Source of the DNA: Bacteroidia bacterium
GTDB lineage: Bacteria > Bacteroidota > Bacteroidia > J057
Assembly: GCA_041753595.1 (NCBI GenBank)
Contig: JBGSTW010000013.1
Location: 1-64,000 of the forward strand
Direction: 5' to 3'
DNA: 64,000 nucleotides
Shown here: one piece after another, positions 8,757 to 53,085 of the stretch
How positions within the stretch are numbered: position 1 is the stretch's first letter
Layout: every line of letters starts with the position of its first letter
The notes under the pieces: model-generated
What the model was told of the DNA's origin: nothing
Databases searched by the model: none
What the model saw: only the letters and a program-made list of their open reading frames with translations
Made by a program: the position numbers and the translations under genes

Positions 8757-9210
8757 CCGGCCAATTATCGGAGTTCCAGCTAAATCCGGTTTCTTCTTTT
8801 CTGGAAAAAAGCATCCAGCGCAGCCCGTTGGTAATCACGAGATGGGGAGCGTGAAAAACCTCATTGTACCTCACCACCTGCATCACGGTAGCGTCGGTAA
8901 GGGGCACCTGTGGCTGTTTACATTCGATCAGCATCCAAGGCTTTGCCTGGCGGTCAAACACCACCAGATCGAAGCGCTTTTTTTGCCGGAAATAAGGGAT
9001 GGCCTTTTCTACCCCGATCAGACCCGGCGCAATACCACGGTCCTCTACAAGATGAATCAGCACCTGTTGCCGCACCACTTCTTCGGGTGTCTCTATGATC
9101 CATTTGTTCCGGACCGGATCCCATATCCGCACTTTCCCTTCAGCTTCTGCTCTTTCAAGCACTCTGACGGGTATAGCCCAGGGAGCCGGTCCGGTCCATT
9201 CATCACTCAT
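8746..9210 (-). CDS. standalone HsdR_N-like (type I restriction enzyme R N-terminal, PD-(D/E)xK fold) domain protein
   Basis: 154 aa with the D...ECK motif (VVFDRQAKPWMLIECKQP). Its ATG (9210..9208) overlaps the TGA stop of the upstream S8 protease gene in the sequence ATGAGTGA. Its 3' end overlaps the convergent FecR-like gene by 11 bp. Confidence 0.65.
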   Translation of the reverse strand: MSDEWTGPAPWAIPVRVLERAEAEGKVRIWDPVRNKWIIETPEEVVRQQVLIHLVEDRGIAPGLIGVEKAIPYFRQKKRFDLVVFDRQAKPWMLIECKQPQVPLTDATVMQVVRYNEVFHAPHLVITNGLRWMLFSRKEETGFSWNSDNWPVKE

Positions 9211-12184: not shown

Positions 12185-12223
12185 GGTGTAATTCTTGGTA
12201 AATGAAAAATGAACGACATGCTA

Positions 12224-15172: not shown

Positions 15173-15182
15173 GCTAAAATAA

Positions 15183-18155: not shown

Positions 18156-18329
18156 GAAAGGTAATTGATAATGATCAGAAAGGGGGAAGAGTTGAATTCG
18201 AAAGATAAAACAAGCCCGGCAAAAATTCACCCGATTTCGTGGCATAGGCCCCGCAATATCCATCAACGGTTATAGGTTGGCTTTTCCAGGTTCCTGTCGT
18301 AATTTTCAAAATAAACCATATACAGCCCC

Positions 18330-21260: not shown

Positions 21261-24200
21261 TCAGGATTTGTCTTCGAGCACCTTGCGGATGGCTTCCATG
21301 TGGCTGGTAAACTGGCCGATGTCGCGCACCAGCTGGGCCATGTAGTCGGCGTTCAGGGCTTTTGTTTCCAGGAAAATGCGGCAGATTTCCTCCCACCTGT
21401 TTTTTTCTTTTTCTGAAAAACGGTCCATCATCCGCTTGAATGCCAGCATATTGGCCTCTGCCCCACTGGCCAGGGTTTGCGATTCGGCTTCGTAGTGGCC
21501 CATGATGAGGACATCCAGCTCGGTATCGTTCATCACGGGCGACACCTTTTCGGCGAGGCGACCCATGTTGCGGTAAGAGCCCTGCAGGCGGAAAGGCGGT
21601 TCACGGCGATAAGCCTCTGCCTGCGCAGCGGAGGAAATGTAGTTTTGGTTTACCTTCAGCACCACCTCGCGCACCACCAGCAGCTTTTTCAGCACCGACA
21701 CGGCGTCGTTCAACTCGTCGGGAGAGAAATTGCTGGAAAACTCAGCACCGGCCAGATCCCCCGTTTCGGCGAGGCGATAGAGCGTGTAGAGGTCCTCCTG
21801 CGGGCGTGAAGCGAGCGAAGCCAGCACCGGATTGCTGGTGAGGGCATTTTCGATATAGCTCAACCGGAAAGCTGATTCATTGCCACCGAGCATGTCGCCG
21901 AGGTTGTAGATATCTGCCCGGTTGGCGAGCATGTCGGGTATCGTAAACCGCTCGCCCGACTCGGTATAGGGGTTTCCCGCCATCACGATTGCCAGCCGCC
22001 TCCCGCGAAAATCATAAGTGCGGCTTTTGCCTTTGTACACGCCTTCTACCTTGCGCTGGGCATCGCAGAGGGAGATGAATTTTTGTAAAAATTCGGGGTG
22101 GGTATGCTGGATGTCGTCGAGGTAGATCATCACGTTGTCGCCCATCTCAAAAGCGAGGTTGAGCTTTTCCAGCTCCTCGCGGGCAGCGGCGTTGGTAGCA
22201 GCACCAGGGTCGAGCGAGGTTACCTGATGACCCAGCGAAGGGCCGTTTATTTTCATAAAAATCAACCCCAGCCGCTGCGCTACATACTCCACCAGGGTCG
22301 TTTTGCCGTAGCCTGGCGGGGATATCAGAAGCAGCATGCCCGAACGGTCGTTGCGCGATTGCTCGTCGGCTGTGCCGATTTGCTTGGCAAGGTTGGCCCC
22401 GATCATCGGTAGGTAGACCTCGTTGATCAGGCGGTTGCGCACAAATCCACTCATGGGCCGCGGCCGGAAATCGTCGAGGCGGATCTGGGCGGTAAATGCC
22501 TGCACCAGCCGGGTTTTGAGCGAAGTAAACGTGCGGAAAAGCGGTGCCAGCTCGAGGTCGAAGTGGCGCATTTTCCCCGAAAAACCGTGATAATCGAGCG
22601 CATAGCTGCCCTGTTCGATCAGCTTGTGCTCCCCGCGCATACCGGGTATGACTTCTTCGCTCGAAGCGGCATGCACCGATTTCTCCTTCCAATCGTCGAT
22701 ATACATCAGCCCGGCAACCTCAGCGGCTGCATGGTAGGGGTCGGCGATACCTTCTTTGGCCAGGTAGGAGCGCACCCAGCCGAGCATGAGCCGATACCTC
22801 TCCACCGAATGATTTTCGAGGGCGGTTACCTGCGCCTGAAAAGCGGTGGCTGCCTTTATTTTTTTCAGAAAAACAAAAAATCCCTTAAACATCGTACCGG
22901 CCAGCTTGCTGATGGGCAGGTCGGCAGATCGGGAGCTGATATCCATCAGGAAATCAACCGCCGCGGCAGCCTCTTGTGGGTCGCCCCAACCTGCTGCGGC
23001 AAACGCGGCAACCTTCTCCTGCAATTCTGCCTTAATTTCCGCTGCCCAGGCCGCGCCGATATCCAGCTTGCGCACCGCATCGGCCGCTTCGAGCCGGGCT
23101 TTCCACACGGGCAATTCTTCAGCGCTCAGTCCTGCAAACAAAAACAACCGCCCCAGGGTGCGTACCGAAGGCGCATAGGCCAGCAGGCCCAGGCCCGATT
23201 TCAAGCGGAGTAAGCCCTCCACGATCAAGGTGGCGTCGTGGTCGTGCACGCCTTTCACGTATCCTTCCTGAAACCGGTCGGCCATGAAGGTGCGCACCTG
23301 CTCGCCCGTGTCGCCCAGCGGATCAAATGCCGGGGTTTCCAGCAGCTTATAGGCGAGGTATTCGGCGCGGTAAACGGCGGTATTTTCGGAGGGAAGCGAT
23401 TGGCTCCAAACGGGACGGGTGGCATCCAGTTCGGGGTCGTTGATGGGTTCGAAAAAGCGGGTGCCCGTAAGGTGGTAAGACAGCTGGTCGTGCTGCAACG
23501 CCACGGTAGCTTCGAGGGGGTGCTGCTGCACCGAAAAGCGGTGATTGCCCAGTTTCAGCACATGGGCCTGGTCCTCAAATATCTCTTTCCGGTCGCGGAG
23601 CTGGCGTACGGCTTCTTCGCGGAGGCCCTGCAGGCGGCTCATCAACTCGGTGGCACGGGTGGGGTCGTTGAGGCTTTGGAGTTGGGTGGCGAGGTCGCGC
23701 ACCTTCACCGCCATGAGGTCGGCAGCAAAGTAGGCGTTTATTTCGTCGGGGCTTTCCATGCGGGCGAGGCGCTGGCGGATGCCTTTCAGGATGCGGTCTC
23801 CGGCATCGGCGAGGGAAGCAGATTTACGGTTACGCTCCTCCACGAGGGACACGCGCCGGGCTTCGAAGGTCTGCACTACTTCTTCGCGCTTGAGGGCAAG
23901 GTCGGTGGCAAATTCTTCAAAATCAGCAAATTTCCCATCCAGCTCCTCCAGTTGCACGGTGAGGCGGGTGAGGTATTCGTCGCATTTTTCGGGCGAGTCG
24001 CTGAGCTCAAAGTAGTTGGAGATCGACTGCGAAAAGAGCCGGAGCTGCGCGTGAAATTCGGCCGAGGCCTCGGCTTTGCGCAGGTCTTTGCGGCGGTTGC
24101 GAAGGGCGCTGCGAATGGCGTTTATTTCGGAGAAAAGAACCGAGATACGGTCAATGATGGCCGTGGTTTGGGTAGCGTCTTCGATGGGCAGGCTGCCCAC

Positions 24201-26099
24201 GGTTTCGATCAGCAATTCGAGCTGACGGGCGGCTTCGTCGAGCAGCTTTTCTACCTTATTGGCTTCGGCTACCTTGGTTACGGCTTCAGCTTCTTTGCGG
24301 AGGCGGGCGGCGGTTTCCTGGTATGGCTGCAGGGCTTCGGCTTTCAGCAAAAAAGCCACACAGTCACGGGCCAGGGCCAGCGATTGCGCGCCGATGCGGT
24401 TTTCCCAGTCAGAAAGGGCTTCGAGGTCGGCGTAGCGCAGATCCCGCAGAGTAATCACTTCTCCTTTCAGCCCCCGCAAATCGCTGAGGTAACCGACAAA
24501 TTCCTGCACTTGGCGGGCACCGTGGCGGCGTACTTTGTCGAGCAGGGTCGTAGCTTTTTCTGCAAATGTACCCACCGAATCGCGGGCCAGGGCCTGCAGA
24601 CGGCGCACTTTTTCAAATTCATCTATGGCGGCGGAAGCGGCAGCTTTTACCCCCGTGACCGGCACCGAAAGCTCAAAAGCTTCTTTATTTTTCAGCCAAT
24701 AATACCCGTCGAGGATATCGCCTGCTTTTTTGGATACATCGAGGTAGAGGCTGTTGTAGGGATCGGGTTTTTCGAGCAGGGTAAGCAGCTCGCGGCATTC
24801 GGCCAGGCCTTTCACGAGGTCTTTGTTGCCCACACGTGCCAGCCACGAATCGCTCACGGTATCGGCCGAGGCGGTATCGATGCCGTAAGGGGTCGTCCAG
24901 ACCTGAATCGTGTGCCGCCTGCCGGGCTCGGCTTCGGCCCTGAAATAGCAGAGCTCCCCGCCCGGGAAAAGCGAAAATCCCTGGCAAACAATGGGCGTAT
25001 CGGCCTGCTGGGCCACGAGGTTGTACGGAAAAAGGGTGTAGTCGCCCAGCTCGGGGTTGGTGAACACGTAGAGGAAATCTTCGCCGTTCGGGGAAGTAAT
25101 CCTTTTTTCAAACTGAAGGCCGGGGGGTATTTTTTCAAACACCTTGTAACCGCCCGTTTGGAGGTAAAAACCGCTGGGGAAAATAAGCCCCTGGTTGTCG
25201 GGCAGGAGTACGCAGGCCCCTTGCAGTGCATCGATCCGCACGGCGGTAGCCAGTTTTTCGTTCACCACGATGTAGCGAAAGTCGCGTTCCTGGTAGGGTT
25301 TTACCTTGAGTACGATGAGGTTTCCTACAAAAGCGTAGTAGATCTCAGCGTCGTCCAGGGTCTGGTCGGGCTGGGTGACGGCTTCGGAGAAAATGCCTTT
25401 GCCGGTGTCGGTATTGTCCTCCACCTTCACGGTAAGGTCACCGCCGATGGTTTCTACAAAGATGTGGTCCTCAATGGAAATATGCGGGTGCTTGCCCTTG
25501 CGGTGCATGTCGCGGGTGGTGCGCTTCCACTGAAACTCGTGCTGATCGGGGAAACGAAACTCGTGGTCGAAGCGGTTGCCCTGGTAGTGGAGCTCGTTTT
25601 CGCGTACGGTCCACTTAAAGGTGCGGATGTCGGAGATGGTTTTCCCGGTCTGAAAAACCATGAACAGGTTGGGGCCAATGACCGCAAATTTCGAGAAGAC
25701 CGTTTCTCGGTAGTATTTGTAGAGGTTGTTAAAATCTTCGAGAAAACGAGCGTCTTCGATCATCTCCAGCGAAAGCGGCTTAAAGCTGAAGTCGCTGGTT
25801 TCGAATTGAAAAACGCTGAATACGTCGGCCAGTTTTACTTCTGTCCGCAACCCGATGTGCACATTGTAGCCAAACAAGAGCGTGTCTCCGATCGCGGCCA
25901 TGTCGCGGGGGAGGCAATTGTTGTCGGTGGTGACATGGTTCGTGGCGGCCAGCTTGGGTTCGCGTGCGCCGAAAATTTCTTTCCGGGCGGCGTTCAGCTG
26001 GTCCATACGGCTGCGCAGGTCCTGGGCCTGGGTGTCCAGGCGTTGTTTCAGGATGTCGTAAGCGCCCGTATCGAGCGCCACGTTTTCAGGTTGTGACAT
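21261..26099 (-). CDS. giant (~1612 aa) multidomain protein with a single AAA_5/MoxR-type AAA+ ATPase domain near residue ~1230; function unknown
   Basis: Walker A LLLISPPGYGKTTLVEY. Walker B VMIYLDDIQH. Followed by RRLAIVMAGNPYTESGERFTIPDMLANRADIY, where MAGNP resembles the MoxR/dynein-type NP motif. The N-terminal ~450 aa are beta-rich, the middle ~700 aa are strongly helical, and the C-terminal ~250 aa are helical. ATG at 26099, with a TTG at 26105. Confidence 0.85.
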   Translation of the reverse strand: MSQPENVALDTGAYDILKQRLDTQAQDLRSRMDQLNAARKEIFGAREPKLAATNHVTTDNNCLPRDMAAIGDTLLFGYNVHIGLRTEVKLADVFSVFQFETSDFSFKPLSLEMIEDARFLEDFNNLYKYYRETVFSKFAVIGPNLFMVFQTGKTISDIRTFKWTVRENELHYQGNRFDHEFRFPDQHEFQWKRTTRDMHRKGKHPHISIEDHIFVETIGGDLTVKVEDNTDTGKGIFSEAVTQPDQTLDDAEIYYAFVGNLIVLKVKPYQERDFRYIVVNEKLATAVRIDALQGACVLLPDNQGLIFPSGFYLQTGGYKVFEKIPPGLQFEKRITSPNGEDFLYVFTNPELGDYTLFPYNLVAQQADTPIVCQGFSLFPGGELCYFRAEAEPGRRHTIQVWTTPYGIDTASADTVSDSWLARVGNKDLVKGLAECRELLTLLEKPDPYNSLYLDVSKKAGDILDGYYWLKNKEAFELSVPVTGVKAAASAAIDEFEKVRRLQALARDSVGTFAEKATTLLDKVRRHGARQVQEFVGYLSDLRGLKGEVITLRDLRYADLEALSDWENRIGAQSLALARDCVAFLLKAEALQPYQETAARLRKEAEAVTKVAEANKVEKLLDEAARQLELLIETVGSLPIEDATQTTAIIDRISVLFSEINAIRSALRNRRKDLRKAEASAEFHAQLRLFSQSISNYFELSDSPEKCDEYLTRLTVQLEELDGKFADFEEFATDLALKREEVVQTFEARRVSLVEERNRKSASLADAGDRILKGIRQRLARMESPDEINAYFAADLMAVKVRDLATQLQSLNDPTRATELMSRLQGLREEAVRQLRDRKEIFEDQAHVLKLGNHRFSVQQHPLEATVALQHDQLSYHLTGTRFFEPINDPELDATRPVWSQSLPSENTAVYRAEYLAYKLLETPAFDPLGDTGEQVRTFMADRFQEGYVKGVHDHDATLIVEGLLRLKSGLGLLAYAPSVRTLGRLFLFAGLSAEELPVWKARLEAADAVRKLDIGAAWAAEIKAELQEKVAAFAAAGWGDPQEAAAAVDFLMDISSRSADLPISKLAGTMFKGFFVFLKKIKAATAFQAQVTALENHSVERYRLMLGWVRSYLAKEGIADPYHAAAEVAGLMYIDDWKEKSVHAASSEEVIPGMRGEHKLIEQGSYALDYHGFSGKMRHFDLELAPLFRTFTSLKTRLVQAFTAQIRLDDFRPRPMSGFVRNRLINEVYLPMIGANLAKQIGTADEQSRNDRSGMLLLISPPGYGKTTLVEYVAQRLGLIFMKINGPSLGHQVTSLDPGAATNAAAREELEKLNLAFEMGDNVMIYLDDIQHTHPEFLQKFISLCDAQRKVEGVYKGKSRTYDFRGRRLAIVMAGNPYTESGERFTIPDMLANRADIYNLGDMLGGNESAFRLSYIENALTSNPVLASLASRPQEDLYTLYRLAETGDLAGAEFSSNFSPDELNDAVSVLKKLLVVREVVLKVNQNYISSAAQAEAYRREPPFRLQGSYRNMGRLAEKVSPVMNDTELDVLIMGHYEAESQTLASGAEANMLAFKRMMDRFSEKEKNRWEEICRIFLETKALNADYMAQLVRDIGQFTSHMEAIRKVLEDKS

Positions 26100-26121
26100 G
26101 GCCAAAGGAAGTTTTCAGGGA

Positions 26122-28299
26122 TCAGGAAATGCCCGCCTGGTCGGCTGTTTTGTCGCTGATACCGAGAGATTCGACCACGCCCATGAGCTGCTGCAGCACC
26201 CCGCGCTGCGACTTATCGTTGGTCTGCGCCATCATTTTCAGGATCAGCGCCGACATCGAGAGGTTTTTGAGGTCGTCGGTCGATACCTTAAACTGGGCAA
26301 TAAACTCGCGCAATTTTCCCGTAAACTGGTTGTCGGAGCCGTCGCCAATCAGCTGGTTTTTGAGGCCATTGAGGGTGGAGCTGTGCTCAAAGAGGTTATC
26401 GACGTATTTGGCACTGACGACCGAACGGGTGATGCGGTCGAAGAACTCCTGCTCACCCCCGATGATGTCGATGTTGGCAGATTTGAGGGCTTCGGCGATG
26501 ACCATGGCCTGGGAAGCGGCCACGTCCTTCTGCACGTTGATGCGGGCGAGCTCGACCACTTTCTGCATGTCGAGGCGGAGCTTAAACTCCTCGTGGTCTT
26601 TGCCCACGCCGTCGAGCTGCTTCATGGCTTCGGCTTTGGCCTGTACGCCTTTGGCATCGGCTACGGCTTTGAGCTCGATAACGGTAGCTTCGCTGCGGCC
26701 CATTTTTTCTACGGCAGAGGCTTTCACTTCCGTTACTTCGGCTTCTACCTTGCCTTGTTCCGATTTCAGGGCGTTTTCGGTTTGTCCGAGGCGCTGGTTG
26801 GCATCGGCCTGGGCTTCGCCTTTGAGCTGTATGCCCTGGGCTTCGGCTTCGGCTTTCATGCGCAGCACATTGGCTTCCGCAAAACCTTCTTTTTCCTTGG
26901 CATGGGCCTTGGCTTCGAGCACGCGGGCTTCGGCTAGTCCGAGGGCGGCATGTTCTTCGGCCACGGCATCGGCCATTATTTTTTTGGCTTCGGCGTCCTT
27001 GTCCACGGCTTCGCGCTCGGCGGTAGCCACGATCAGGCGGGTTTGAGATTCGAGCTGGGCAGCTTCTTTTTGGGCTTCAGCGCCTTTTATTTTCACCACC
27101 AATTGCTCCTGAGCCTTTTGCTCGGCGGCGAGGATAGCTACCTTTTTGGAGCGCTCGGCCTCGGCAAAAGCAGAGGTATCTTTTATTTTTTCCTGCTCTT
27201 CTACCACGGCACGCTCCACCACCACGCGGTCGCGGATCACGTCCTGGATATTTTTCTTTTCCTCCTCCACGGCCTTTTCTTTGCCGATCTGCGCAATGGC
27301 CACGATGCGTTCGCGGTCGGTAGATTCGAGCTGGCGGTCGCGCTCCACTTTTTCGCTTTCTACGGCCAAGGTGCGCTCTTTGCTCTTCTGGGCCACGATC
27401 ACGTCGCGGGTTTTATTCTGCTCTTCGATGTCGATCTCCCGCTCGCGGGCGATGCGGGCGCGCTCGGATTTGGTCAGCTCTTCCTGCTGCACCCGCTTGA
27501 TTTCGGCTTCTTCGCGTGCTTTTACCGAGGCAACCTCCCGCTTCTGGATTTCTTCTTTTTCTGAAAGCTGGCGATTCAGCTCCAGAATGGCTTCCTGGGC
27601 TTCTACGTCCTGGCGCTTGATTTCCTTTTCCTTGTTGCGCTGAATTTTGTTGGCGAGGGTAATCTGGTGGCTGGTCAGCTCGCGGATTTTCTTGATACCC
27701 TCGGCGTCGAGGATGTTGTTTTCGTTGAGGAAGTCGATGGGGGTTTGCTCCAGGAAGTCGATGGCGCAGTCGTCGAGTACGTAGCCGTTGAGGTCGCGGC
27801 CGATGAGGTTCATGATTTCTTCGCGGAATTTTTCGCGGGCGTTGTACAGCTCCACAAAATCAAACTTCTTGCCCACGGTTTTGAGGGCTTCGGAGAACTT
27901 GGCTTCGAACAGGAGATTGAGCAGCTCGTGGTCGGAGGCACGGGCACAGCCGATGGTTTGGGCTACCTTCTTCACGTCGTCCACCGTGGGATTTACCCGC
28001 ACAAAAAATACCACCTTGATGTCGGCCCGGAGGTTGTCTTTACAAATAAGGCCCTCTTTGCCTTCGCGGGAAATCATCACCTGCTTCAGGGATATCTCCA
28101 TGGTTTCGGCATTGTGCAGGAGCGGGATGACCCACATACCTTCAAAAGCGACTCGGGTATTGCCGTAGCCGGTGCGCACCAGGGCTTTTCCCTGGGTTAC
28201 TTTTCGGTAAAAAAGGGAGATCAACGTCACGTAGCCAAAAATGGCCACCAGTACAATGACGCCGAAAATGATCCCAATGTTGAGTAGGAGGTTGTTCAT
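26122..28299 (-). CDS. flotillin-family SPFH/Band-7 protein (long form, 725 aa)
   Basis: N-terminal TM helix IGIIFGVIVLVAIFGYVTLI. The SPFH domain spans RTGYGNTRVAFEGMWVIPLLH...TQ. A long E/K/A-rich coiled-coil follows, then a flotillin C-terminal region. Confidence 0.9.
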   Translation of the reverse strand: MNNLLLNIGIIFGVIVLVAIFGYVTLISLFYRKVTQGKALVRTGYGNTRVAFEGMWVIPLLHNAETMEISLKQVMISREGKEGLICKDNLRADIKVVFFVRVNPTVDDVKKVAQTIGCARASDHELLNLLFEAKFSEALKTVGKKFDFVELYNAREKFREEIMNLIGRDLNGYVLDDCAIDFLEQTPIDFLNENNILDAEGIKKIRELTSHQITLANKIQRNKEKEIKRQDVEAQEAILELNRQLSEKEEIQKREVASVKAREEAEIKRVQQEELTKSERARIAREREIDIEEQNKTRDVIVAQKSKERTLAVESEKVERDRQLESTDRERIVAIAQIGKEKAVEEEKKNIQDVIRDRVVVERAVVEEQEKIKDTSAFAEAERSKKVAILAAEQKAQEQLVVKIKGAEAQKEAAQLESQTRLIVATAEREAVDKDAEAKKIMADAVAEEHAALGLAEARVLEAKAHAKEKEGFAEANVLRMKAEAEAQGIQLKGEAQADANQRLGQTENALKSEQGKVEAEVTEVKASAVEKMGRSEATVIELKAVADAKGVQAKAEAMKQLDGVGKDHEEFKLRLDMQKVVELARINVQKDVAASQAMVIAEALKSANIDIIGGEQEFFDRITRSVVSAKYVDNLFEHSSTLNGLKNQLIGDGSDNQFTGKLREFIAQFKVSTDDLKNLSMSALILKMMAQTNDKSQRGVLQQLMGVVESLGISDKTADQAGIS

Positions 28300-28329
28300 G
28301 GGAGGGAAGAAAAATGGTTTATTCAGAGA

Positions 28330-28992
28330 TTATTCAAAAGGTGAAACCAGATAAATGTCTTTTTCCGGGTCAAATTCAACGATGAGTGCCTGGGTGCCTT
28401 TTTCCAGGGCAATATCGCCTTCAGCGGCGGCATTGAGCTGAAAATGGCCTTCGTCGGTTTGTAAACTGATGCTGCCCATGCGGCCCGGAGAGATTCGGGT
28501 AACGACCTCGCCTATTTTCCCCACCAGCTCTTTCTTTTCTTTACCGCCCGCATTCATTTTCGCAAACATGCCCTTGAAAGGACTGGTAAATACCTTGGTG
28601 AGAAACAGGCCGATGAGGAGATTGGGAATCAGCCAGATCAGGAAAAACAAAGCCAAAGCACCCCCTATCAGCCGCTCGCCGATGAGCGAACCCGCCCACA
28701 GAAAAAAGGTGAAAAAGGTGAAAAATACCATGAAGGGTACTTTTCCAAGGTTGAAAAACGCGAGGGTTTCGAGTAAAAATCCCCCACCGGCGCCATCGCC
28801 ATCGTGCATGTCGCCATCGTGGCTGAGGTCGGCATCGTGGCTGAGGTCCGCGTCGTGGTCGGTGTGTATGTCGAGAAAATTGAGGTCGAGGGCCCCAAGA
28901 AATACCGTGACCCAGTACACCAGCACCAGCAGGAGGAGCAGGGTGTAAAAGATATGTACCGGAGAAAATGCAAGTCGAAACAGTTCAGCCAT
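28330..28992 (-). CDS. NfeD-like (YqiJ/YuaF-like) membrane protein, flotillin partner
   Basis: N-terminal TM helix and an acidic His/Asp loop HDADLSHDADLSHDGDMHDGDG. Further TM helices, then a C-terminal OB-fold-like soluble domain GKIGEVVTRISPGRMGSISL...LIVEFDPEKDIYLVSP. ATG at 28992, with a TTG at 28998. It sits 30 bp upstream of the flotillin gene. Confidence 0.8.
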   Translation of the reverse strand: MAELFRLAFSPVHIFYTLLLLLVLVYWVTVFLGALDLNFLDIHTDHDADLSHDADLSHDGDMHDGDGAGGGFLLETLAFFNLGKVPFMVFFTFFTFFLWAGSLIGERLIGGALALFFLIWLIPNLLIGLFLTKVFTSPFKGMFAKMNAGGKEKKELVGKIGEVVTRISPGRMGSISLQTDEGHFQLNAAAEGDIALEKGTQALIVEFDPEKDIYLVSPFE

Positions 28993-29215
28993 ATTCAAAA
29001 TATTACGACATGCCCATACACTACTGATCTATCCTGCCAGCTTATCGCTTTCAAGGTATTCACAGTAAAAAAGCAGATTTTACCCGAAGGTTGAAACAGG
29101 GAACAGGAATTTAATCAGTATAATTTTCTTCCCCGCTTGCTAACACTTCAGTCTATGCCTGGGCAATACACAGCGCGGCTCCGTCACTTTTAAAAGAACT
29201 ATTGACCTTCTACTC

Positions 29216-37377: not shown

Positions 37378-37752
37378 ATGAATTACCGCATCCTTACCCT
37401 CCTCTTCGTTATTAGCGGTTTGGCCCAGGGGCTGAAAGCCGATCCGCCGCGCAATATCGTGTATATCCTCGCCGACGACCACCGCTTCGATTTTATAGGC
37501 TTTAAGGGCAAAGTTCCCTGGCTGAAAATGCCCAACCTCGACCGCCTGGCGCGGGAAGGGGTGTATGCGCCCAATACCTACGTCACCACTTCGCTGTGTT
37601 CGCCAAGCCGGGCCTCGATCCTCACGGGGCTTTTTTTGGGGCGGGTATCAAACCCGCCGTTATTGAGTGGCACAGCACGCGGATTGGCAGGGCCAGCGAT
37701 CCTTCGCAGTGGGTTCTATACCCACCTACTATTGGCGGCAGAATGCCCCTGA
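37378..37752 (+). pseudogene. sulfatase N-terminal remnant (~88 aa of authentic sulfatase sequence) truncated by repeat sequence
   Basis: Signal peptide, then VYILADDHRFD and the sulfatase signature CSPSRASILTG. The reading frame then runs into the ~95-bp repeat and terminates. No sulfatase C-terminal part is present. Confidence 0.65.
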
Positions 37753-38032
37753 ACTGCTTCGCGCTAAAATCGGGGGGATGCGTTTTTCTATAATCCGGGC
37801 ACCCCTGACGGGGTTTTCGGAGTGGATGATTTTGGGGAGGATGCGCAGAATAGCTTTTTCAGGGCCGACCTGGCTTTTCGTCGGAGACTGAAGCTCGGCG
37901 GTACAGGTTAGTACACGCGAGGTTGGGGGCGGGCTTTTTTTTGGGAGCGGGTGTCAAACCCGCCGTTATTGAATGGCGCGTCACGTGGATTGGCAGGACT
38001 GGCGATCCTTCGCGGTGGGTTTGATACCCACC
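37631..38032. repeat. pair of ~95-bp direct repeats (~37631-37726 and ~37935-38032) flanking a copy of the small dispersed repeat
   Basis: The two copies are about 85% identical. Each contains a T-run followed by the hairpin ggcgggtatcaaacccgcc, written g(a/g)gcgggt(a/g)tcaaacccgcc across the two copies. Confidence 0.7.
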
Positions 38033-38147
38033 AACAACGATGGGGGGCAGATGATTTTGCTAGTAGCACCCCCCTGCAATTCCCCCTTTCGTCTTTTTTC
38101 CCTAGCTTCCCCTTTTCTCCGAAACCCCTGACTATCCGAAAACCGGA

Positions 38148-45951: not shown

Positions 45952-46064
45952 AAAAAAAAACTGCTAAAAGCTTGACCCCAAAAATACCGCGTTATTCTAA
46001 TTTTATTCTAATAAAAAACGCCTGCAAACACACGATTGATCACCTTTTGAAGTCTGAATCAGGC

Positions 46065-46110
46065 AAAAAACGAAAATACCCGAAGGACCTAACGGCCTCC
46101 GGGTAATTTT
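46065..46110 (-). terminator. putative rho-independent terminator after gene 46135..47646
   Basis: Stem cccgaagg / cctccggg with one mismatch and a 9-nt loop. It is flanked by an A-run on the plus strand (a T-run on the minus strand) and by a T-run downstream on the plus strand. Confidence 0.45.
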
Positions 46111-46134: not shown

Positions 46135-47646
46135 TTATACCGCGGCGTAGGCTTTGCGCAGGTCGTCGAGGCGGGAAAGGTGCAGGTCGGCTTCTTTGTG
46201 CAAATGGGGGTCTTCCACAAGTTGCTTCACTTCCAGCGACTTGGCTACCATGTCGAGGTAGCGGCCTTCGTTGAATTCGTCCACCTCCTGCTGCACATAC
46301 CAGCTAGCCTCTACGTGGTTGAGCAGGGTAAGGGCCCTTTCGAGCGGAAACCTGCCGGGCGTGCGTATTTCGAGGGCTTCCTGGTAGTAATGCAGGGCCT
46401 TCTTATGGTTATCTGAATGAACGGCAGCCGGGTATTTCGTCAGGGCATTGCCGAAGCTATTGCAGACCAGGGCGTATTCGTAGGGGTAATTTTCTTTGTC
46501 AAAAATGGTCAGGGCTTCGGTGAAAGCCGCTGAGGATACCGCCGCCCAAACACTCTTTTTCTTTACCTCATCGGGTATTTCGGAGTAAATGACCCCGAGC
46601 ATGTGCTGGATTTCGGCAAAAACTTCGGGCGTTTGATCACGCGAGAACACCTTCAAGGCTTGCTGAAAAGCGTCTATTGCCGGACGGAAAAACTGCGCCT
46701 GGCCTTTTTTGGCCCAGGTGTAGAGCAGGGTACCTTTCCGGAACTGGGCATTGGCCAGCAGCTCACCGAGGCCCTCGTTGCCAAAAATTTCAATCGCCTG
46801 GTTCACGTAACCCAGCGACTCGGCAAAGCTTTCGGCATAGTTGGCGATCTGGGCAGCATCTACGAGCAGCAGACCGCGCTCCGCTTCGCGGTGATAGGTT
46901 TCCAGGTGCCCGAGCACTTCCCACAGGGTTTGTTTCAGTTCGGCCAGGAGCGCCTGGTCATAGGGCACCGCCAGTTTATTCATCCACACGGCACACAAGC
47001 CCTGCTTCAGTTCCATTTTCACCTGATCGTGAGGGGCATATTGCAACGCGCCCAGCAGGAGGTCCTCGGCATGGGCCACATGGCCTACATCCGATAGAAA
47101 AACGGCGTATTGCTTGGCGGAAAATGCTTTCCAGGCATCATCGGGCGCAGCTACCATGGCTTCGTGGTAGAAGTAGCGCACTTTTTCTCCGTCGAAATTG
47201 GCTTCCTCTGCCGCATAGTGCCGCACCACAGCCTGGTTGTGCATCAGGCGGTATTCTTCAAACTCCGAATACTCACTCGCCAATTCGTCGGGGTTGACCG
47301 GCATGCCGATGCGGATGCGGTCCATTACCTCCATTTCCTGGAGGAGGGCAGGGTCACCGGCGAGCCATTCCCAGGCTTTTTCGTTGTTTCCCAAAAAGAA
47401 AAAAACCAACCCCAGCAGCACCTCTGGTTTCGCTGGCAGGTATTCGGGCAAAATATAGGGGGTATGCCTGTTTTTCCAGTCGATTGACAAGGCTATTCCT
47501 TTCTTTTCAAAACGGAAATCGGGATCATCGCCAGCCACGAGGGCGGCTTCGTCCTTTACCGATACCAGTTCATTGAGGCGGTGTTCGCGGGCGATCCAGC
47601 TGTGGATGGTTTCATGATGATCGGCCGGTGCAACGATAAGCAGCAT
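46135..47646 (-). CDS. hypothetical protein (503 aa, helical) encoded in the [NiFe]-hydrogenase cluster
   Basis: No catalytic motif is recognised. It sits 36 bp downstream of the preceding gene and is co-directional with it. Confidence 0.55.
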   Translation of the reverse strand: MLLIVAPADHHETIHSWIAREHRLNELVSVKDEAALVAGDDPDFRFEKKGIALSIDWKNRHTPYILPEYLPAKPEVLLGLVFFFLGNNEKAWEWLAGDPALLQEMEVMDRIRIGMPVNPDELASEYSEFEEYRLMHNQAVVRHYAAEEANFDGEKVRYFYHEAMVAAPDDAWKAFSAKQYAVFLSDVGHVAHAEDLLLGALQYAPHDQVKMELKQGLCAVWMNKLAVPYDQALLAELKQTLWEVLGHLETYHREAERGLLLVDAAQIANYAESFAESLGYVNQAIEIFGNEGLGELLANAQFRKGTLLYTWAKKGQAQFFRPAIDAFQQALKVFSRDQTPEVFAEIQHMLGVIYSEIPDEVKKKSVWAAVSSAAFTEALTIFDKENYPYEYALVCNSFGNALTKYPAAVHSDNHKKALHYYQEALEIRTPGRFPLERALTLLNHVEASWYVQQEVDEFNEGRYLDMVAKSLEVKQLVEDPHLHKEADLHLSRLDDLRKAYAAV

Positions 47647-47682: not shown

Positions 47683-48051
47683 TTACCAGGAAATTTCCAG
47701 GGTATGGGTGCCTTCGGGGCAATGATAGCTCAGTACCCGATCGGTGTCGTCAAGGCCCTGGTCGAGCAGTACATCGTGCAGGGCTACGGAACGGTCGCCG
47801 TGCGGATTGCGGGTTTTGAGCATGTGAAGGGCTGTTTTGTGCGCATCGCGAAAGGCCATATCGTCCATCCGGGCCAGGCGCAGCACTTTGAGCGCTTCGT
47901 CAAAAGCCGTTAATACCTGCTGGATATCTCCAAAAAGAGGTGTTGCTACCTCAGCTGCAATCAACAGGTGTTGCTGCCGGAGGCTTACGGGGTGGGTGGC
48001 GGGTTGCGGTGCCGAAGGTTGCGGGTTGCCTACACGGATCGTTTTTTCCAT
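47683..48051 (-). CDS. hypothetical protein (122 aa) encoded in the [NiFe]-hydrogenase cluster
   Basis: Start is an ATG. It lies 36 bp downstream of the maturation protease gene. Confidence 0.5.
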   Translation of the reverse strand: MEKTIRVGNPQPSAPQPATHPVSLRQQHLLIAAEVATPLFGDIQQVLTAFDEALKVLRLARMDDMAFRDAHKTALHMLKTRNPHGDRSVALHDVLLDQGLDDTDRVLSYHCPEGTHTLEISW

Positions 48052-48087: not shown

Positions 48088-48579
48088 TCAGGCGGGAGTG
48101 GAGTGACCCGGTTGGGCTATTTCCTCCAAAATAAGCGCGGCTACCCGCCCGGCTGCCTCGGATACGACTTCCGAAAGCCCTACTTCCAGCCGGGTATTGG
48201 TGATGGAAATAAGGTAAACCGATACATCCTTGGGGTAATCGTTTTGCAGAATTTTGCGGGCGTAGGACAATGCCTGGTCCCACTTCAGGGAGTGAAGAAA
48301 AACCATGGGATCGTCCTGGATAGATGCTTCCACGGCTTCGGCAGGCAGTCGGTAAAGGGTGCCGTCGGGTTCGCCTGAATTTATCACGCCATCTACCAGC
48401 AGGATACGGGTATGGCCTTTTAGCTGAAACAATACCTCAAAAGCCGAGGTACCCATGTCGATCAAAGACACATGCTCGTGCTCACCCATCTGTGCCTGGA
48501 GCAGCTCAATGACCCTACAGCCTACCCCGTCGTCGCTGCGAACCGGGTTACCAAAACCCAAAATGGCTGTTTTTCCCAT
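48088..48579 (-). CDS. hydrogenase maturation protease (HyaD/HybD/HupD family, large-subunit C-terminal peptidase)
   Basis: N-terminal motif ILGFGNPVRSDDGVGCRV, matching GNP...DDG. The cluster context also supports the call. Confidence 0.85.
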   Translation of the reverse strand: MGKTAILGFGNPVRSDDGVGCRVIELLQAQMGEHEHVSLIDMGTSAFEVLFQLKGHTRILLVDGVINSGEPDGTLYRLPAEAVEASIQDDPMVFLHSLKWDQALSYARKILQNDYPKDVSVYLISITNTRLEVGLSEVVSEAAGRVAALILEEIAQPGHSTPA

Positions 48580-48639
48580 GATGCTGAAAAAAAGTCCGCC
48601 TCCCGAACAGGAGGCGGATGAAATAAAAACCTTAAGGGT

Positions 48640-50232
48640 TCAAAGTTTGAAACGGGAGATTTCCTCGCCCGATTTGCCGTCGTGGGCATGCACGGTACAA
48701 ACGAGGCAGGAGTCAAATGACCTTGCCACCATGCCAACCTCCACCGGATCGTGTGGATCCTCGATTTCGGTGCCTTCGAGGGCAGCTTCAATCGGGCCGG
48801 AGTTGCCGGCTTCATCGTTAGGGCCTACATTCCAGGTAGTAGGAGCGACTACCTGGTAATTTTTGATCACGCCATTTTCGATTTCAATCCAGTGAGCGAG
48901 TGCCCCGCGGGCAGCTTCGGTGGCTCCCCATCCCTGGCCGTCTCTTTCTTCAGGCTTGATATAAAATTCGTCGTCGAGGCGAACCTGACCCAGCCAGTCG
49001 TTGATGAAGGTGTAGAGGCGCGGGGCTTCGTGCATACGTGCCAGAGCGCGGGTAAACACGCTGGGGCCTTTTTTGTCCATGATATCGAGGAACAAAGGAT
49101 CCTGGATCTGATGGGAAAGGTTGGCCGGGTTGGCGTTCATGATTACCCGTGAAAGCGGCCCGGCTTCGGCGGCATAGCCCAGGTAGCGGGGGGCTTTTGA
49201 CCAGGAGTATTTTCCGTTAAAATCTGTTTCGTTGAGGTTTTGAGAAGCCAACGGGGTTGGAAGAGGTTCTGACCAGGGATGAGCAGCGTTCACATCGGCG
49301 TACCAGGAGTGCTTTACGTGCTCGGTAATGTCGAGGTGATTGAGGTTAATGAACTCCTTGCCATCCCAGAAACCGCCGGGGCTGATAACGGCTGACTGGC
49401 GCGATTCCACGGTGGGGTGGTTGTAGAGGTCTTTGTGCAGGTAGGTACCGTAAGCCACAAATTTACCTACTCCCTGGCCGAAGGTATCGAGGCCAAACTC
49501 GAGGCTGGCGCGGATAAACAGGCCGAGGTCAGAGTTGCGCTGCGATTCGTTTTCGTCCACCCACTCCAGCATGTCTTCCCATGACTTGATCTGCATGTAC
49601 CGGTCGATGGAGCAGCCGAGCCAAACGGATTCGAGCCAATCGTTGCGGAAGTGGTTCATGATGGCCGTGGCGCGGGTAATATCCTTGAGGGTCGGTGCGC
49701 ACATCACGCCTCCGGGTACCATGTAGGATGAGTGCGGCCACTGGCCGCCAAACAAAGCATATACCTCCACCGGACGACCCGAGGCGGTTACCCCGCGCTG
49801 AAAGGAGGTACCCACGTAGGCCGAAAAGCGGCGCACCACTTCGTCGTAGAGGGGTTTGTTGGCAAATTTTTTATTCGCCATGTCGGTGGCGAAGATGGCA
49901 TAAAACCAGCGGGGAATACTCTGGATCGTTTCTGTTGCCTGTCCAATGGCGCGGAGCAGCAGGGCATTGGGCGGAAGGGTTGTTTTCCAGGCCGTATCGA
50001 GGGCCGAAGAGGCGCAGTACAGGTGTGAGCCTCCACAGATCCCGCAGATACGCGGGGTAACAATCAGCCCCGACTGGGGGTCTTTACCGGCCATGATTTG
50101 CTCAAAACCACGAAACATCGCGGCTTGGGTGTGAGCACGGGTCACTACCCCGTTTTCCATATATACTTTCACATCCAGGTCGCCTTCTACACGACCAACG
50201 GGTGAAATATTTAGCTCTTTATAGGCTGACAT
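48640..50232 (-). CDS. [NiFe]-hydrogenase large subunit
   Basis: N-terminal NiFe-binding motif RICGICGGSH. C-terminal motif DSCLVCTVH, followed by a short extension that is the substrate of the adjacent protease. Confidence 0.9.
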   Translation of the reverse strand: MSAYKELNISPVGRVEGDLDVKVYMENGVVTRAHTQAAMFRGFEQIMAGKDPQSGLIVTPRICGICGGSHLYCASSALDTAWKTTLPPNALLLRAIGQATETIQSIPRWFYAIFATDMANKKFANKPLYDEVVRRFSAYVGTSFQRGVTASGRPVEVYALFGGQWPHSSYMVPGGVMCAPTLKDITRATAIMNHFRNDWLESVWLGCSIDRYMQIKSWEDMLEWVDENESQRNSDLGLFIRASLEFGLDTFGQGVGKFVAYGTYLHKDLYNHPTVESRQSAVISPGGFWDGKEFINLNHLDITEHVKHSWYADVNAAHPWSEPLPTPLASQNLNETDFNGKYSWSKAPRYLGYAAEAGPLSRVIMNANPANLSHQIQDPLFLDIMDKKGPSVFTRALARMHEAPRLYTFINDWLGQVRLDDEFYIKPEERDGQGWGATEAARGALAHWIEIENGVIKNYQVVAPTTWNVGPNDEAGNSGPIEAALEGTEIEDPHDPVEVGMVARSFDSCLVCTVHAHDGKSGEEISRFKL

Positions 50233-50258: not shown

Positions 50259-51240
50259 TTATTTGGAGGTCTCGAAGTGTTCTTTGTTGGCGCCAGCGAT
50301 TTTCTCTACTGTGCCGAGCACTTTCTCAAAGCCCGCACGGGTGTAGTAGCCAAGGCGGGTATTGCCGGTGGGTACATCTTTTGGCAGGAATCCGAGATAT
50401 TTCAGCGACTTGAATACGCTCCCTTTCACGAGGTCGTGGTGGGGGAAGCCCGGCTCTGTACAACCCAGGCAAGGGTGATTGGCGCGGGTTTTGGACGACT
50501 GGCGGTTCCAGAGAATACGGTTACAACTGGCGCGCGTCATGGGTCCACGACACCCTACTTCGTAAAAGAGGCATCCGCCACGCTTGCCAAAATGTCCGTC
50601 CACTTTTTCGGCAAAGCTGATGGCATTGGGGCAGCCGGTTTGCACGAAGTCGGTAAAGAAGGTTTTTGGTCGGTGGAAAGAATCGAGGAGCACATCTCCT
50701 ACCCTGCCCGTGGCAATGGCTACCAGAATCTGGGTAATCCAGTCGGGGTGTGCCGGGCAACCGGGTATATTGATTACGGGCAAGCCGCCTTTGGATACAT
50801 AATTTTCACCCAAAAATCCCCCCTTCTTGTCCTTATGAAACTGCATACCGGTTGACTCGCTTGGGTTTGGCGGAACGGCCGGAATGCCCCCCCCAGGTAG
50901 CGCAGTCGCCGATAGCCACCACAAAAGCAGCTTTTTTCGACAACTCCTGCACCCAGTCCTTCATGGGGCGGTCGCAGAAATAGTTCATCGTTCCGGTGCC
51001 GTGTGGCCCGTTAATGATAGAGCCCTCGTACACCAGGATATCCAGCTGGACCTTTTCCTTTTTGATGTCCTCCATAAGGTCGGCTACCTGATGGCCAATC
51101 TCAAGACCAATAGAGGGATGCCATAAAATATTGACACCGAAATCGGTGACCAATTCTACAACCGTAGGCTCTTCTGCATTGAGGAACGACATGGTATTCC
51201 CGCTGCATGCACCGCCTTGAAGCCAAAGCACATTTGCCAT
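50259..51240 (-). pseudogene. [NiFe]-hydrogenase small subunit lacking a Tat signal and interrupted by a +1 frameshift in a G8 homopolymer (C8 on the plus strand, ~50887-50894)
   Basis: The N-terminal ORF 50833..51240 reads MANVLWLQGGACSGNTMSF ... AIGDCATWGG. The C-terminal ORF 50259..50924 reads IPAVPPNPSESTG...INIPGCPAHPDW...CLGCTEPGFP. Removing one G joins them as ...DCATWGGIPAVPPNP.... Confidence 0.8.
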
Positions 51241-51382: not shown

Positions 51383-52015
51383 TTACATGGGCAGTCCATC
51401 GGGGTAAGTCTGCACTTCCAGCACATATATTTCCTGTCCTTTGGGGGTAAGCAGGGGCAGCAACTGCTCCCACACCTGGTCGCGGAAATTTACCGGTAAA
51501 TGGGCCGTACCCTTCAATAGCTGCTGATGCTGGAAGAAAATGGCCTGCAACCAGAGGTTATGGCTCAGGGTATCGAACATGCCCGGATAGGCCTCGCCTT
51601 TCAGCAAGCCTTTCTGCACGAAAAAATCGAGGCGGTAGCGGAGTTGGGTAGAAAATTTTTTAAAATAACTCTGTAACCGGGATTCTTTTTCGGGGAAAGC
51701 GCGGATGACTTCGGGGATATCGAGGAGGAAAAACCGATACTGCTGAAAAAACTGCTGCAGGCGGCTCAGCTGCAAGTCAAGGTCCATGAGGTTGGGATAC
51801 ACGAGGTATTCGCCCAGGATTGCCGCAAATTCGTCCTGTATAATATCGAGCACACCGGCCACGATCGCTTCTTTGTTGGTGTAATGGTAGGCGAGATTGC
51901 CCACACTGATACCCGACTCATCGGCAATTTGCTGGAGGCGCACATTGGCTATCCCCCGGTCATTAAATAAACGGATAGCAGATTCAAGGATGCGATTTTT
52001 GGTCGTTACAGACAT
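51383..52015 (-). CDS. TetR/AcrR-family transcriptional regulator
   Basis: HTH motif ILESAIRLFNDRGIANVRLQQIADESGISVGNLAYHY. Confidence 0.85.
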   Translation of the reverse strand: MSVTTKNRILESAIRLFNDRGIANVRLQQIADESGISVGNLAYHYTNKEAIVAGVLDIIQDEFAAILGEYLVYPNLMDLDLQLSRLQQFFQQYRFFLLDIPEVIRAFPEKESRLQSYFKKFSTQLRYRLDFFVQKGLLKGEAYPGMFDTLSHNLWLQAIFFQHQQLLKGTAHLPVNFRDQVWEQLLPLLTPKGQEIYVLEVQTYPDGLPM

Positions 52016-52054
52016 TTCGACAAAAAAGTAGGGTAAAGGAATGAAATACGAGGC

Positions 52055-52414
52055 TCAGTTAGGCTCAGAAAGCAACTGGTCGGGGTCGATGCACAGGGTA
52101 CCGCGCTGGTCCTTGGCGGCAAGCCTGCGCATGAGGCTGGCAGTGAGGTCGGCTTTGCGTTTGCAGGAAAAGGAAATTATCCGCCTTCTTAGAAATTGCA
52201 TGGGCCGTTGATAATGGGCAAATACCAGCGATATTTCCCACTCTCCACGCACCCTGCGCAGAGATTCAATCACCGCAGAGTCTGTAAGCCAAACCCCATC
52301 CTGCAGGAAACCGAGGTCTCGCTCCTGACCAACCACGTCCAGTATGTGCAGGCCGTGGAGGGCATACAGCATTTGCTGGTAAACACGTTCGTCGATGTGG
52401 AATGAATGGGGCAT
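52055..52414 (-). CDS. hypothetical protein (119 aa) between two TetR genes
   Basis: ATG start. It is co-directional with its neighbours and spaced 13 bp and 39 bp from them. Confidence 0.45.
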   Translation of the reverse strand: MPHSFHIDERVYQQMLYALHGLHILDVVGQERDLGFLQDGVWLTDSAVIESLRRVRGEWEISLVFAHYQRPMQFLRRRIISFSCKRKADLTASLMRRLAAKDQRGTLCIDPDQLLSEPN

Positions 52415-52428
52415 AATCGGGTTTTAAT

Positions 52429-53085
52429 TTAGAAATATTTTCCTAAAATTAAAGCATTCAATTGTGAGAATTCTGACCAGCCCATGTCGGAAAAGCAAGT
52501 GGACAGCAGCATCCAGGGAGATTTGCGGAAGGCTTCGAAATCATCGGCAGGGGATTGTAGTAAGCGTTGGCGGTATTGCCAGCTTTCGAGCTGATTCCAG
52601 CATATTTCGGCCAAAGCCTGGTGCTGCCCGGGCGAATATTCGGGGATAAACGCCCCACGCGATACATTGAACTGAAACATCATGCCTACCTGGGCAATCT
52701 GATTGAGTCGGTTTTCGCGGTGTGCGGCTGCAATCTGGGGGTAGCTGCGGAGTATCTCGAGGGTATCCTGGTAAAAAAAAGGATAGGCTTGCTGCAAAGC
52801 AAAATAAGACCGGAACATGCGCTCGATGTCTTCGAACAAGGGCAGTACCCGAAATTCGGCCATGAGGGTATGTTGCGCTTCGAGGATACGCGCCCAGATC
52901 GCCTCTACTATCAGCTCTTTGGTGCGGAAGTGGTAGGCCATATTGCCCAGGCTCATGCCCGCTTCGTCGGCAATCTGCTGCAACCGGGTATTGGACACCC
53001 CCGTGTGGTTGAAACACCGGACAGCCGCCTCCAGGATGCGCTGCTTCGTAATCCAACTTCCGGCCTGGTTTGCCCGCGTATTCAT
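52429..53085 (-). CDS. TetR/AcrR-family transcriptional regulator (paralogue)
   Basis: HTH motif ILEAAVRCFNHTGVSNTRLQQIADEAGMSLGNMAYHF. Confidence 0.85.
   Translation of the reverse strand: MNTRANQAGSWITKQRILEAAVRCFNHTGVSNTRLQQIADEAGMSLGNMAYHFRTKELIVEAIWARILEAQHTLMAEFRVLPLFEDIERMFRSYFALQQAYPFFYQDTLEILRSYPQIAAAHRENRLNQIAQVGMMFQFNVSRGAFIPEYSPGQHQALAEICWNQLESWQYRQRLLQSPADDFEAFRKSPWMLLSTCFSDMGWSEFSQLNALILGKYF

Follow-up and report, generated by a model that had tools for sequence, protein, structure and literature searches.

The small-subunit gene of a [NiFe]-hydrogenase assigned to group 2a (hupS/hucS, 50259–51240, minus strand) is split in this Bacteroidia genome by a one-nucleotide insertion in a run of G. 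The extra base is probably a genuine and recent slipped-strand mutation, that is, an ordinary homopolymer frameshift (probability about 0.6), and nothing in the 64 kb of DNA analyzed here (the window) points to a mechanism dedicated to decoding or switching. The first-pass annotation had offered three explanations for the break: a homopolymer sequencing error, an inactivating mutation and a slippage-prone tract that makes expression phase-variable or slippage-dependent. The evidence assembled below favors the inactivating mutation and lends no positive support to slippage-dependent expression.

Read on the minus strand, the sequence at the break is GGC GAC TGC GCT ACC TGG GGG GGG CAT TCC GGC CGT. 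Its eight consecutive G, which are C8 at plus-strand positions 50887–50894, lie within the GDCATWGG motif, where they span the codons of W117-G118-G119 as TGG GGG GG(G) GC and exceed by one base the G7 that would keep the frame. The N-terminal ORF (50833–51240, minus strand, 135 aa) carries HupS residues 1–119, ending in AIGDCATWGG, followed by a 16-residue out-of-frame tail (HSGRSAKPKRVNRYAVS) and a stop codon. The C-terminal ORF (50259–50924, minus strand, 221 aa) carries residues 118–326, reading ...GGIPAVPPNPSESTG...INIPGCPAHPDW...CLGCTEPGFP, and holds the PGCP cysteine together with every ligand of the medial and distal clusters, but it has no native start. Two overlapping ORFs divided at a C8 run near 50887–50894 had been described before, and both the coordinates and the reading are confirmed from the sequence. 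The accompanying claim, that seven bases would join the halves, also holds: deletion of a single base yields an uninterrupted HupS of 326 aa, with the Pfam domains Oxidored_q6 and NiFe_hyd_SSU_C along its entire length, which aligns at 100% coverage with database proteins of the same size (326 aa), the highest identity being 90%, and the nearest relative has an in-frame G7. In the annotation of the source assembly, the gene appears as two fragments, both located on a single NCBI contig (94,581 bp). The N-terminal fragment (P0132, 119 aa) begins at Met17 of HupS, and the C-terminal fragment (P0252, 195 aa) is started at the ATG at 50846.

The G8 tract is the longest G/C homopolymer in the window. 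Dinucleotide-preserving shuffles lead one to expect 7.8 ± 3.6 G/C runs of at least 8 nt in 64 kb, and only this one is observed; long G/C runs are thus otherwise avoided, and the lone exception breaks a gene. A/T runs of 7–9 nt, unlike the strongly depleted G/C runs of at least 8 nt, are common within the ORFs of the window. The same gene has a second G run, a G6 (50818–50823) located 64 nt downstream, where AAG GGG GGA encodes the K-G-G of KKGGFLG. Three database fragments (P0163, P0189 and P0227) seemingly lose the frame near the equivalent site, so that this run may be a second weak point of the small-subunit gene.

The repaired HupS finds its best PDB match in the small subunit of the Mycobacterium smegmatis hydrogenase Huc (7UUR/7UTD, E 4e-134), and HupL matches the Huc large subunit with an E value of 5e-199. 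The next hydrogenase classes follow only at about 1e-35 for the small and about 5e-59 for the large subunit. HupS has no Tat signal peptide: the protein begins MANVLWLQGGACSGN, and residue 1 of mature HucS pairs with its residue 2 in the alignment. Since the Huc-level matches stand far above those to the other classes and the Tat leader is missing, the enzyme is, judged by its sequence, a group 2a [NiFe]-hydrogenase of the Huc/cyanobacterial HupSL type, an assignment that rests on the separation between best hits and on synteny with Bacteroidota loci. The large subunit (hupL/hucL, 48640–50232, minus strand, 530 aa) is intact, with the nickel-binding motifs RICGICGGSH and DSCLVCTVH followed by a C-terminal tail of 15 residues, and hupD adjoins it. 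The genome is Saprospiraceae-like, and the best matches are to metagenome-assembled genomes of Saprospiraceae, Lewinellaceae and Cytophagales. A Bacteroidota-associated radiation of group 2a has been described in 34 genomes, for which H2 oxidation was then unreported (PMC7784904).

Every gene of the operon other than hupS is full length. On the minus strand, hupL is followed by the maturation endopeptidase gene hupD (48088–48579, 163 aa, intact), by the gene for a conserved 122-aa protein without assigned function (p122, 47683–48051), which is syntenic in most relatives, and by that for a conserved TPR-like protein of 503 aa (46135–47646), the last operon gene in the window. A consensus scan places a terminator-like hairpin between hupL and hupD (48595–48618, minus strand; 10-bp stem with 7 G-C pairs and a T7 tail), which may control how much structural relative to maturation transcript is made. 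Upstream of hupS lies a block of two TetR genes flanking the gene of a 119-aa protein without assigned function (TetR of 218 aa, p119, TetR of 210 aa; 51383–53085, minus strand) that is syntenic with the hydrogenase in most relatives. The complete order TetR(218)-p119-TetR(210)-hupS-hupL-hupD-p122-TPR(503) is kept in most of 80 related loci. Many of these also have p101, a p119 paralogue (35% identical) that separates p122 from the TPR gene; the window lacks it. The neighborhood comparison (L002–L081) assigned no Pfam or NCBIfam family to p119, p122, p101 or the TPR protein of about 500 aa.

The cluster had also been called otherwise complete. This is correct for the structural, endopeptidase and conserved accessory genes, which are intact, but not for maturation as a whole: the cluster in the window is not complete, with hypA and hypB, like all other hyp genes, absent from the entire 64 kb. 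The search covered essentially all ORFs of at least 100 aa with Pfam and NCBIfam, and used tblastn with HypA and HypE. Among the 70 relatives with enough flanking sequence, 55 carry hypA directly 3′ of the TPR gene; in two further relatives (L060 and L071) hypA overlaps the TPR stop codon by 4 nt, and in both loci that were checked (L002 and L019) hypB comes after hypA. In the window, set against L002, L005, L006 and L019, the place of hypA directly after the TPR stop is taken by a hairpin with a T-rich tail (46061–46104, minus strand), followed by an unrelated secreted dehydrogenase, and tblastn finds no hypA remnant downstream of the TPR gene at E ≤ 10. Seven relatives likewise lack hypA within the fetched locus, and the hyp genes of the window organism may therefore simply lie elsewhere.

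The remainder of the window contains several further features. Three paralogous genes arranged in tandem (9203–18266, minus strand) code for S8 subtilases, each of about 1,000 aa, that carry Ig-like and PKD domains; T9SS sorting domains were detected in two of them, and the domains of this kind in the window place the organism in Bacteroidota. In a second group (21261–28998, minus strand), a protein of 1,614 aa that contains DUF3686 ('ATPase involved in DNA repair'), an AAA domain and DUF7902 is followed by proteins of 725 aa and 222 aa without a family match; the group may be a defence-like or repair module. A sulfatase remnant (37378–38147) covers only positions 1–61 of the 301 of the Pfam model, and its homology ends where a 99-nt element begins (37631–37729). 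A second copy of this element, 85% identical, lies 306 nt further on (37937–38035). Each copy has two short hairpins, and there are only these two in the window; the element resembles a small repeat or a MITE that has entered a truncated gene.

The history of the tract can be read from the small-subunit genes of relatives, for which the 80 related genome loci provide 89 copies. All 89 encode the motif GDCA(T/A)(W/Y)GGI in a single frame, and their G-run is G4 in 81 copies, G7 in six and G2 in two; none has G8. The nearest relative found (L096, a JGI metagenome contig), with 86% nucleotide identity and about 97% amino acid identity over the C-terminal 195 residues, reads ACG TGG GGG GGC ATT CCA, an in-frame G7. 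The allele of the window is thus a lineage-specific expansion from G7 to G8. Two further group 2a lineages have changed length at the same Trp-Gly-Gly tract, in both cases by a 1-nt deletion to G6 (at about 3350 in L082 and about 3350 in L086). The first of these (L082–L085, HupS 66% identical) shows G6 in four per-sample SPAdes assemblies (ERZ28548085, ERZ28548069, ERZ28548087 and ERZ28548094), and its other operon genes are intact. The second (L086–L091) shows G6 in six assemblies (three from ENA/NCBI, three from Logan) and has further breaks in hupS and hupL; with multiple breaks in both subunits, it is a decayed pseudogene. The recurrence of G6 in two other lineages, across four and six assemblies, indicates that real indels recur at this tract. 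No sister strain emerged when HupL, HupD, p122 and further proteins of the window were looked up by exact match; apart from the source contig, the matches were all short Logan contigs, belonging to two sibling runs. An exact-pattern scan of JGI metagenomes for G6–G9 alleles between the window's own flanks gave no matches, and the repaired 326-aa protein, which would correspond to the G7 allele of the same species, has no exact match in the protein collection. A literature search on homopolymer frameshifts in hydrogenase small subunits found nothing relevant.

The proposed course of events is as follows. In the ancestor, TGG GGG GGC, with seven G, would have encoded the Trp-Gly-Gly within GDCATWGG, a motif of the proximal Fe-S cluster, and slipped-strand mispairing during replication would have added one G. 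Translation of the G8 allele from the native start exits the frame after Gly119 and stops after 16 further codons. In the small subunits of [NiFe]-hydrogenases, the cysteines of the proximal [4Fe-4S] cluster belong to the motifs GxCxGN, GDCA and PGCP, while the ligands of the medial and distal clusters lie in the C-terminal domain. The 135-aa product would lack the fourth proximal-cluster cysteine (PGCP) as well as the medial and distal ligands, so it would be unable to relay electrons and this allele of the Huc-type uptake hydrogenase would be switched off. As written, the G8 allele should yield no active enzyme, going by what is known of the family. The two fragments were also considered as a naturally split subunit. 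This reading was discarded: the break falls within the N-terminal domain, six residues past the third cysteine of the proximal cluster, natural splits do not occur in any of the relatives, and the C-terminal ORF lacks a start of its own.

How old could the lesion be? The hupS ORF is disrupted relative to its intact orthologues, and neither the gene nor the operon shows a further lesion or relaxed constraint. When the window proteins are aligned with their homologues from the related loci, and private substitutions are counted at columns invariant in all others, there are no deviations in the repaired HupS (0/148 columns), HupL (0/225), HupD (0/33) or the TPR protein (0/14). Given this absence of other damage, the frameshift is either very recent, or not real, or tolerated. 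If it is real, its being the sole defect in an operon of undiminished conservation makes it recent. It is slightly surprising that a null allele should be the consensus of a natural population and yet be accompanied by no other decay. Lying within the G8 tract, the lesion could be undone by a further slippage of the same kind, but nothing indicates that such reversion serves as a switch.

Alternatively, the organism may have G7 and an intact gene, the additional G being a homopolymer miscall in the consensus. A single base makes the break, and it falls in the window's longest G/C homopolymer; the gene and its operon show no other flaw, as expected if an error had been introduced into a functional gene; L096, the nearest relative, carries G7; and the databases contain many frameshifted small-subunit fragments, broken at varied positions, several of them from visibly noisy assemblies (such as L092). 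Against a miscall stands the agreement between assemblies. A contig of the independent Logan k-mer assembly of run SRR28170466 (L001) matches the window at 100% identity along 2,528 bp, G8 included, two more Logan contigs (SRR28170466 and SRR28170468) are likewise 100% identical, and over 6.9 kb the comparison yields zero mismatches and zero indels. These contigs measure 2–2.5 kb, and the presence of short identical contigs in two sibling runs suggests that the source is a metagenome-assembled genome. The end of one Logan contig at 50910 was examined as a possible G7/G8 bubble and rejected as such: at k = 31 an unresolved bubble would break the contig at 50917 or 50893, and at both positions it is unbroken. 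The Logan contig was possibly built from the same reads as the deposited assembly, in which case a systematic homopolymer miscall would appear in both. The other homopolymers of 7–9 nt give no hint of such a tendency: 26 of 36 lie inside uninterrupted ORFs, intact ORFs reach 1,614 aa, none of these runs breaks an ORF, and no second split gene with homology on both sides was found. A general homopolymer problem in the assembly is therefore not apparent, and a miscall, while it deserves to be taken seriously, is the less likely account of the extra base.

The other explanations accept G8 as real and give it a function. The tract could be a phase-variable contingency tract, in which G7 and G8 (and G6) interconvert at a high rate and turn the hydrogenase on and off within the population. 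A hypermutable homopolymer is present inside the ORF, at codons 117–119 and hence in its 5′ third, and changes of ±1 have struck the same tract in three group 2a lineages, in two of which the rest of the operon is intact. However, the assemblies show a single tract length for each population, G8 in both assemblies available here (deposited and Logan) and G6 in 4/4 assemblies of L082–L085; the third lineage is a multiply broken pseudogene; and most relatives have G4 at the motif, so that the tract is not conserved. Nor does a set of selected tracts emerge, with one G/C run of at least 8 nt in a window otherwise depleted in them and mostly G4 in the orthologues. Contingency loci are typically surface or restriction-modification genes of mismatch-repair-poor pathogens, not core energy enzymes. 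Phase variation is accordingly improbable, and it would be a long shot to propose TGG-GGG-GGN as a reversible slippage switch of the atmospheric-H2 group 2a hydrogenase in environmental bacteria, with G8 here and G6 in L082 as the 'off' states of maintained operons. Recoding would make a full-length subunit from the G8 gene itself, either by +1 ribosomal frameshifting on GGG-G or from RNA one G short, produced by polymerase slippage; cells with G8 only would then contain peptides spanning ...CATWGGIPAVPP..., and likewise the peptide ...DCATWGGIPAVPPNPSESTGMQFHK. The P-site tRNA-Gly re-pairs perfectly in the +1 frame of the G run, which makes the slip chemically easy, and reading TGG GGG GGG and skipping the C would give the canonical W-G-G-I-P-A. 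Several observations speak against it. The shift is found in 0/89 related copies, and the nearest relative is in frame too; and there is no RNA structure downstream, the 107 nt that follow folding worse than shuffled sequences (z = +1.81). Together with the lack of tract-length polymorphism in the two assemblies, these points leave slippage-dependent expression, as first suggested, without positive support. In the 0 frame, the codon next to the run is an ordinary CAT, neither a stop nor rare (His CAT/CAC 119/217), and the first 0-frame stop comes 17 codons on, with none at the A site. Documented cases of productive transcriptional slippage mostly involve A/T runs of at least 9 nt. Recoding is therefore extremely improbable, and a recent slipped-strand frameshift remains the preferred reading.

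The case bears on how hydrogenase genes are counted. Surveys of trace-gas oxidizers usually count only matches to hucL/hupL, and an intact large subunit alone is no basis for scoring this genome as H2-oxidizing. The G-run that arises from TGG GGG GGN (Trp-Gly-Gly) makes group 2a small-subunit genes repeatedly vulnerable, with three independent lineages affected, and knowledge of this hotspot is useful for the curation of hydrogenase databases and for judging the quality of metagenome-assembled genomes. Beyond these points on annotation and the hotspot, the lesion is ordinary.

Among characterized enzymes, the hydrogenase most closely resembles Huc of M. smegmatis (PDB 7UTD, 7UUR, 7UUS, 8DQV), with which it shares the subunit matches, the lack of a Tat signal, a dedicated endopeptidase and the motif GDCA(C/T)(F/W)GGIPA; NHL-repeat and hyp genes near the hydrogenase in relatives of the window add to the likeness. 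Differently to Huc, the small-subunit gene of the window is broken by one base and there are no hyp genes in the 64 kb, and the neighborhood is of the Bacteroidota type (TetR-p119-TetR upstream, p122 and TPR downstream) instead of the mycobacterial hucE/hucM set. A group 2a structural gene interrupted in the genome as sequenced is also familiar from heterocystous cyanobacteria, whose developmentally excised hupL element is removed by a site-specific recombinase. That element, however, is multi-kilobase and lies in the large subunit, whereas here a single base interrupts the small subunit and no recombinase is involved. The +1 frameshifting of prfB is similar in that a +1 shift on a re-pairing codon would restore the protein, but the G8 tract lacks a conserved shift site, a stimulatory structure and conservation among orthologues, and its A-site codon is neither a stop nor hungry. 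With the contingency poly-G loci of Campylobacter and Neisseria it shares the repeated hitting of one tract in independent lineages; unlike with them, no length variation has been seen within the population, the tract is unconserved, the region avoids such runs and the gene encodes a core energy enzyme. Another parallel is found in slipped-strand homopolymer pseudogenes, where, as here, a change of ±1 in a G/C run of at least 7 nt inside an ORF truncates the product.
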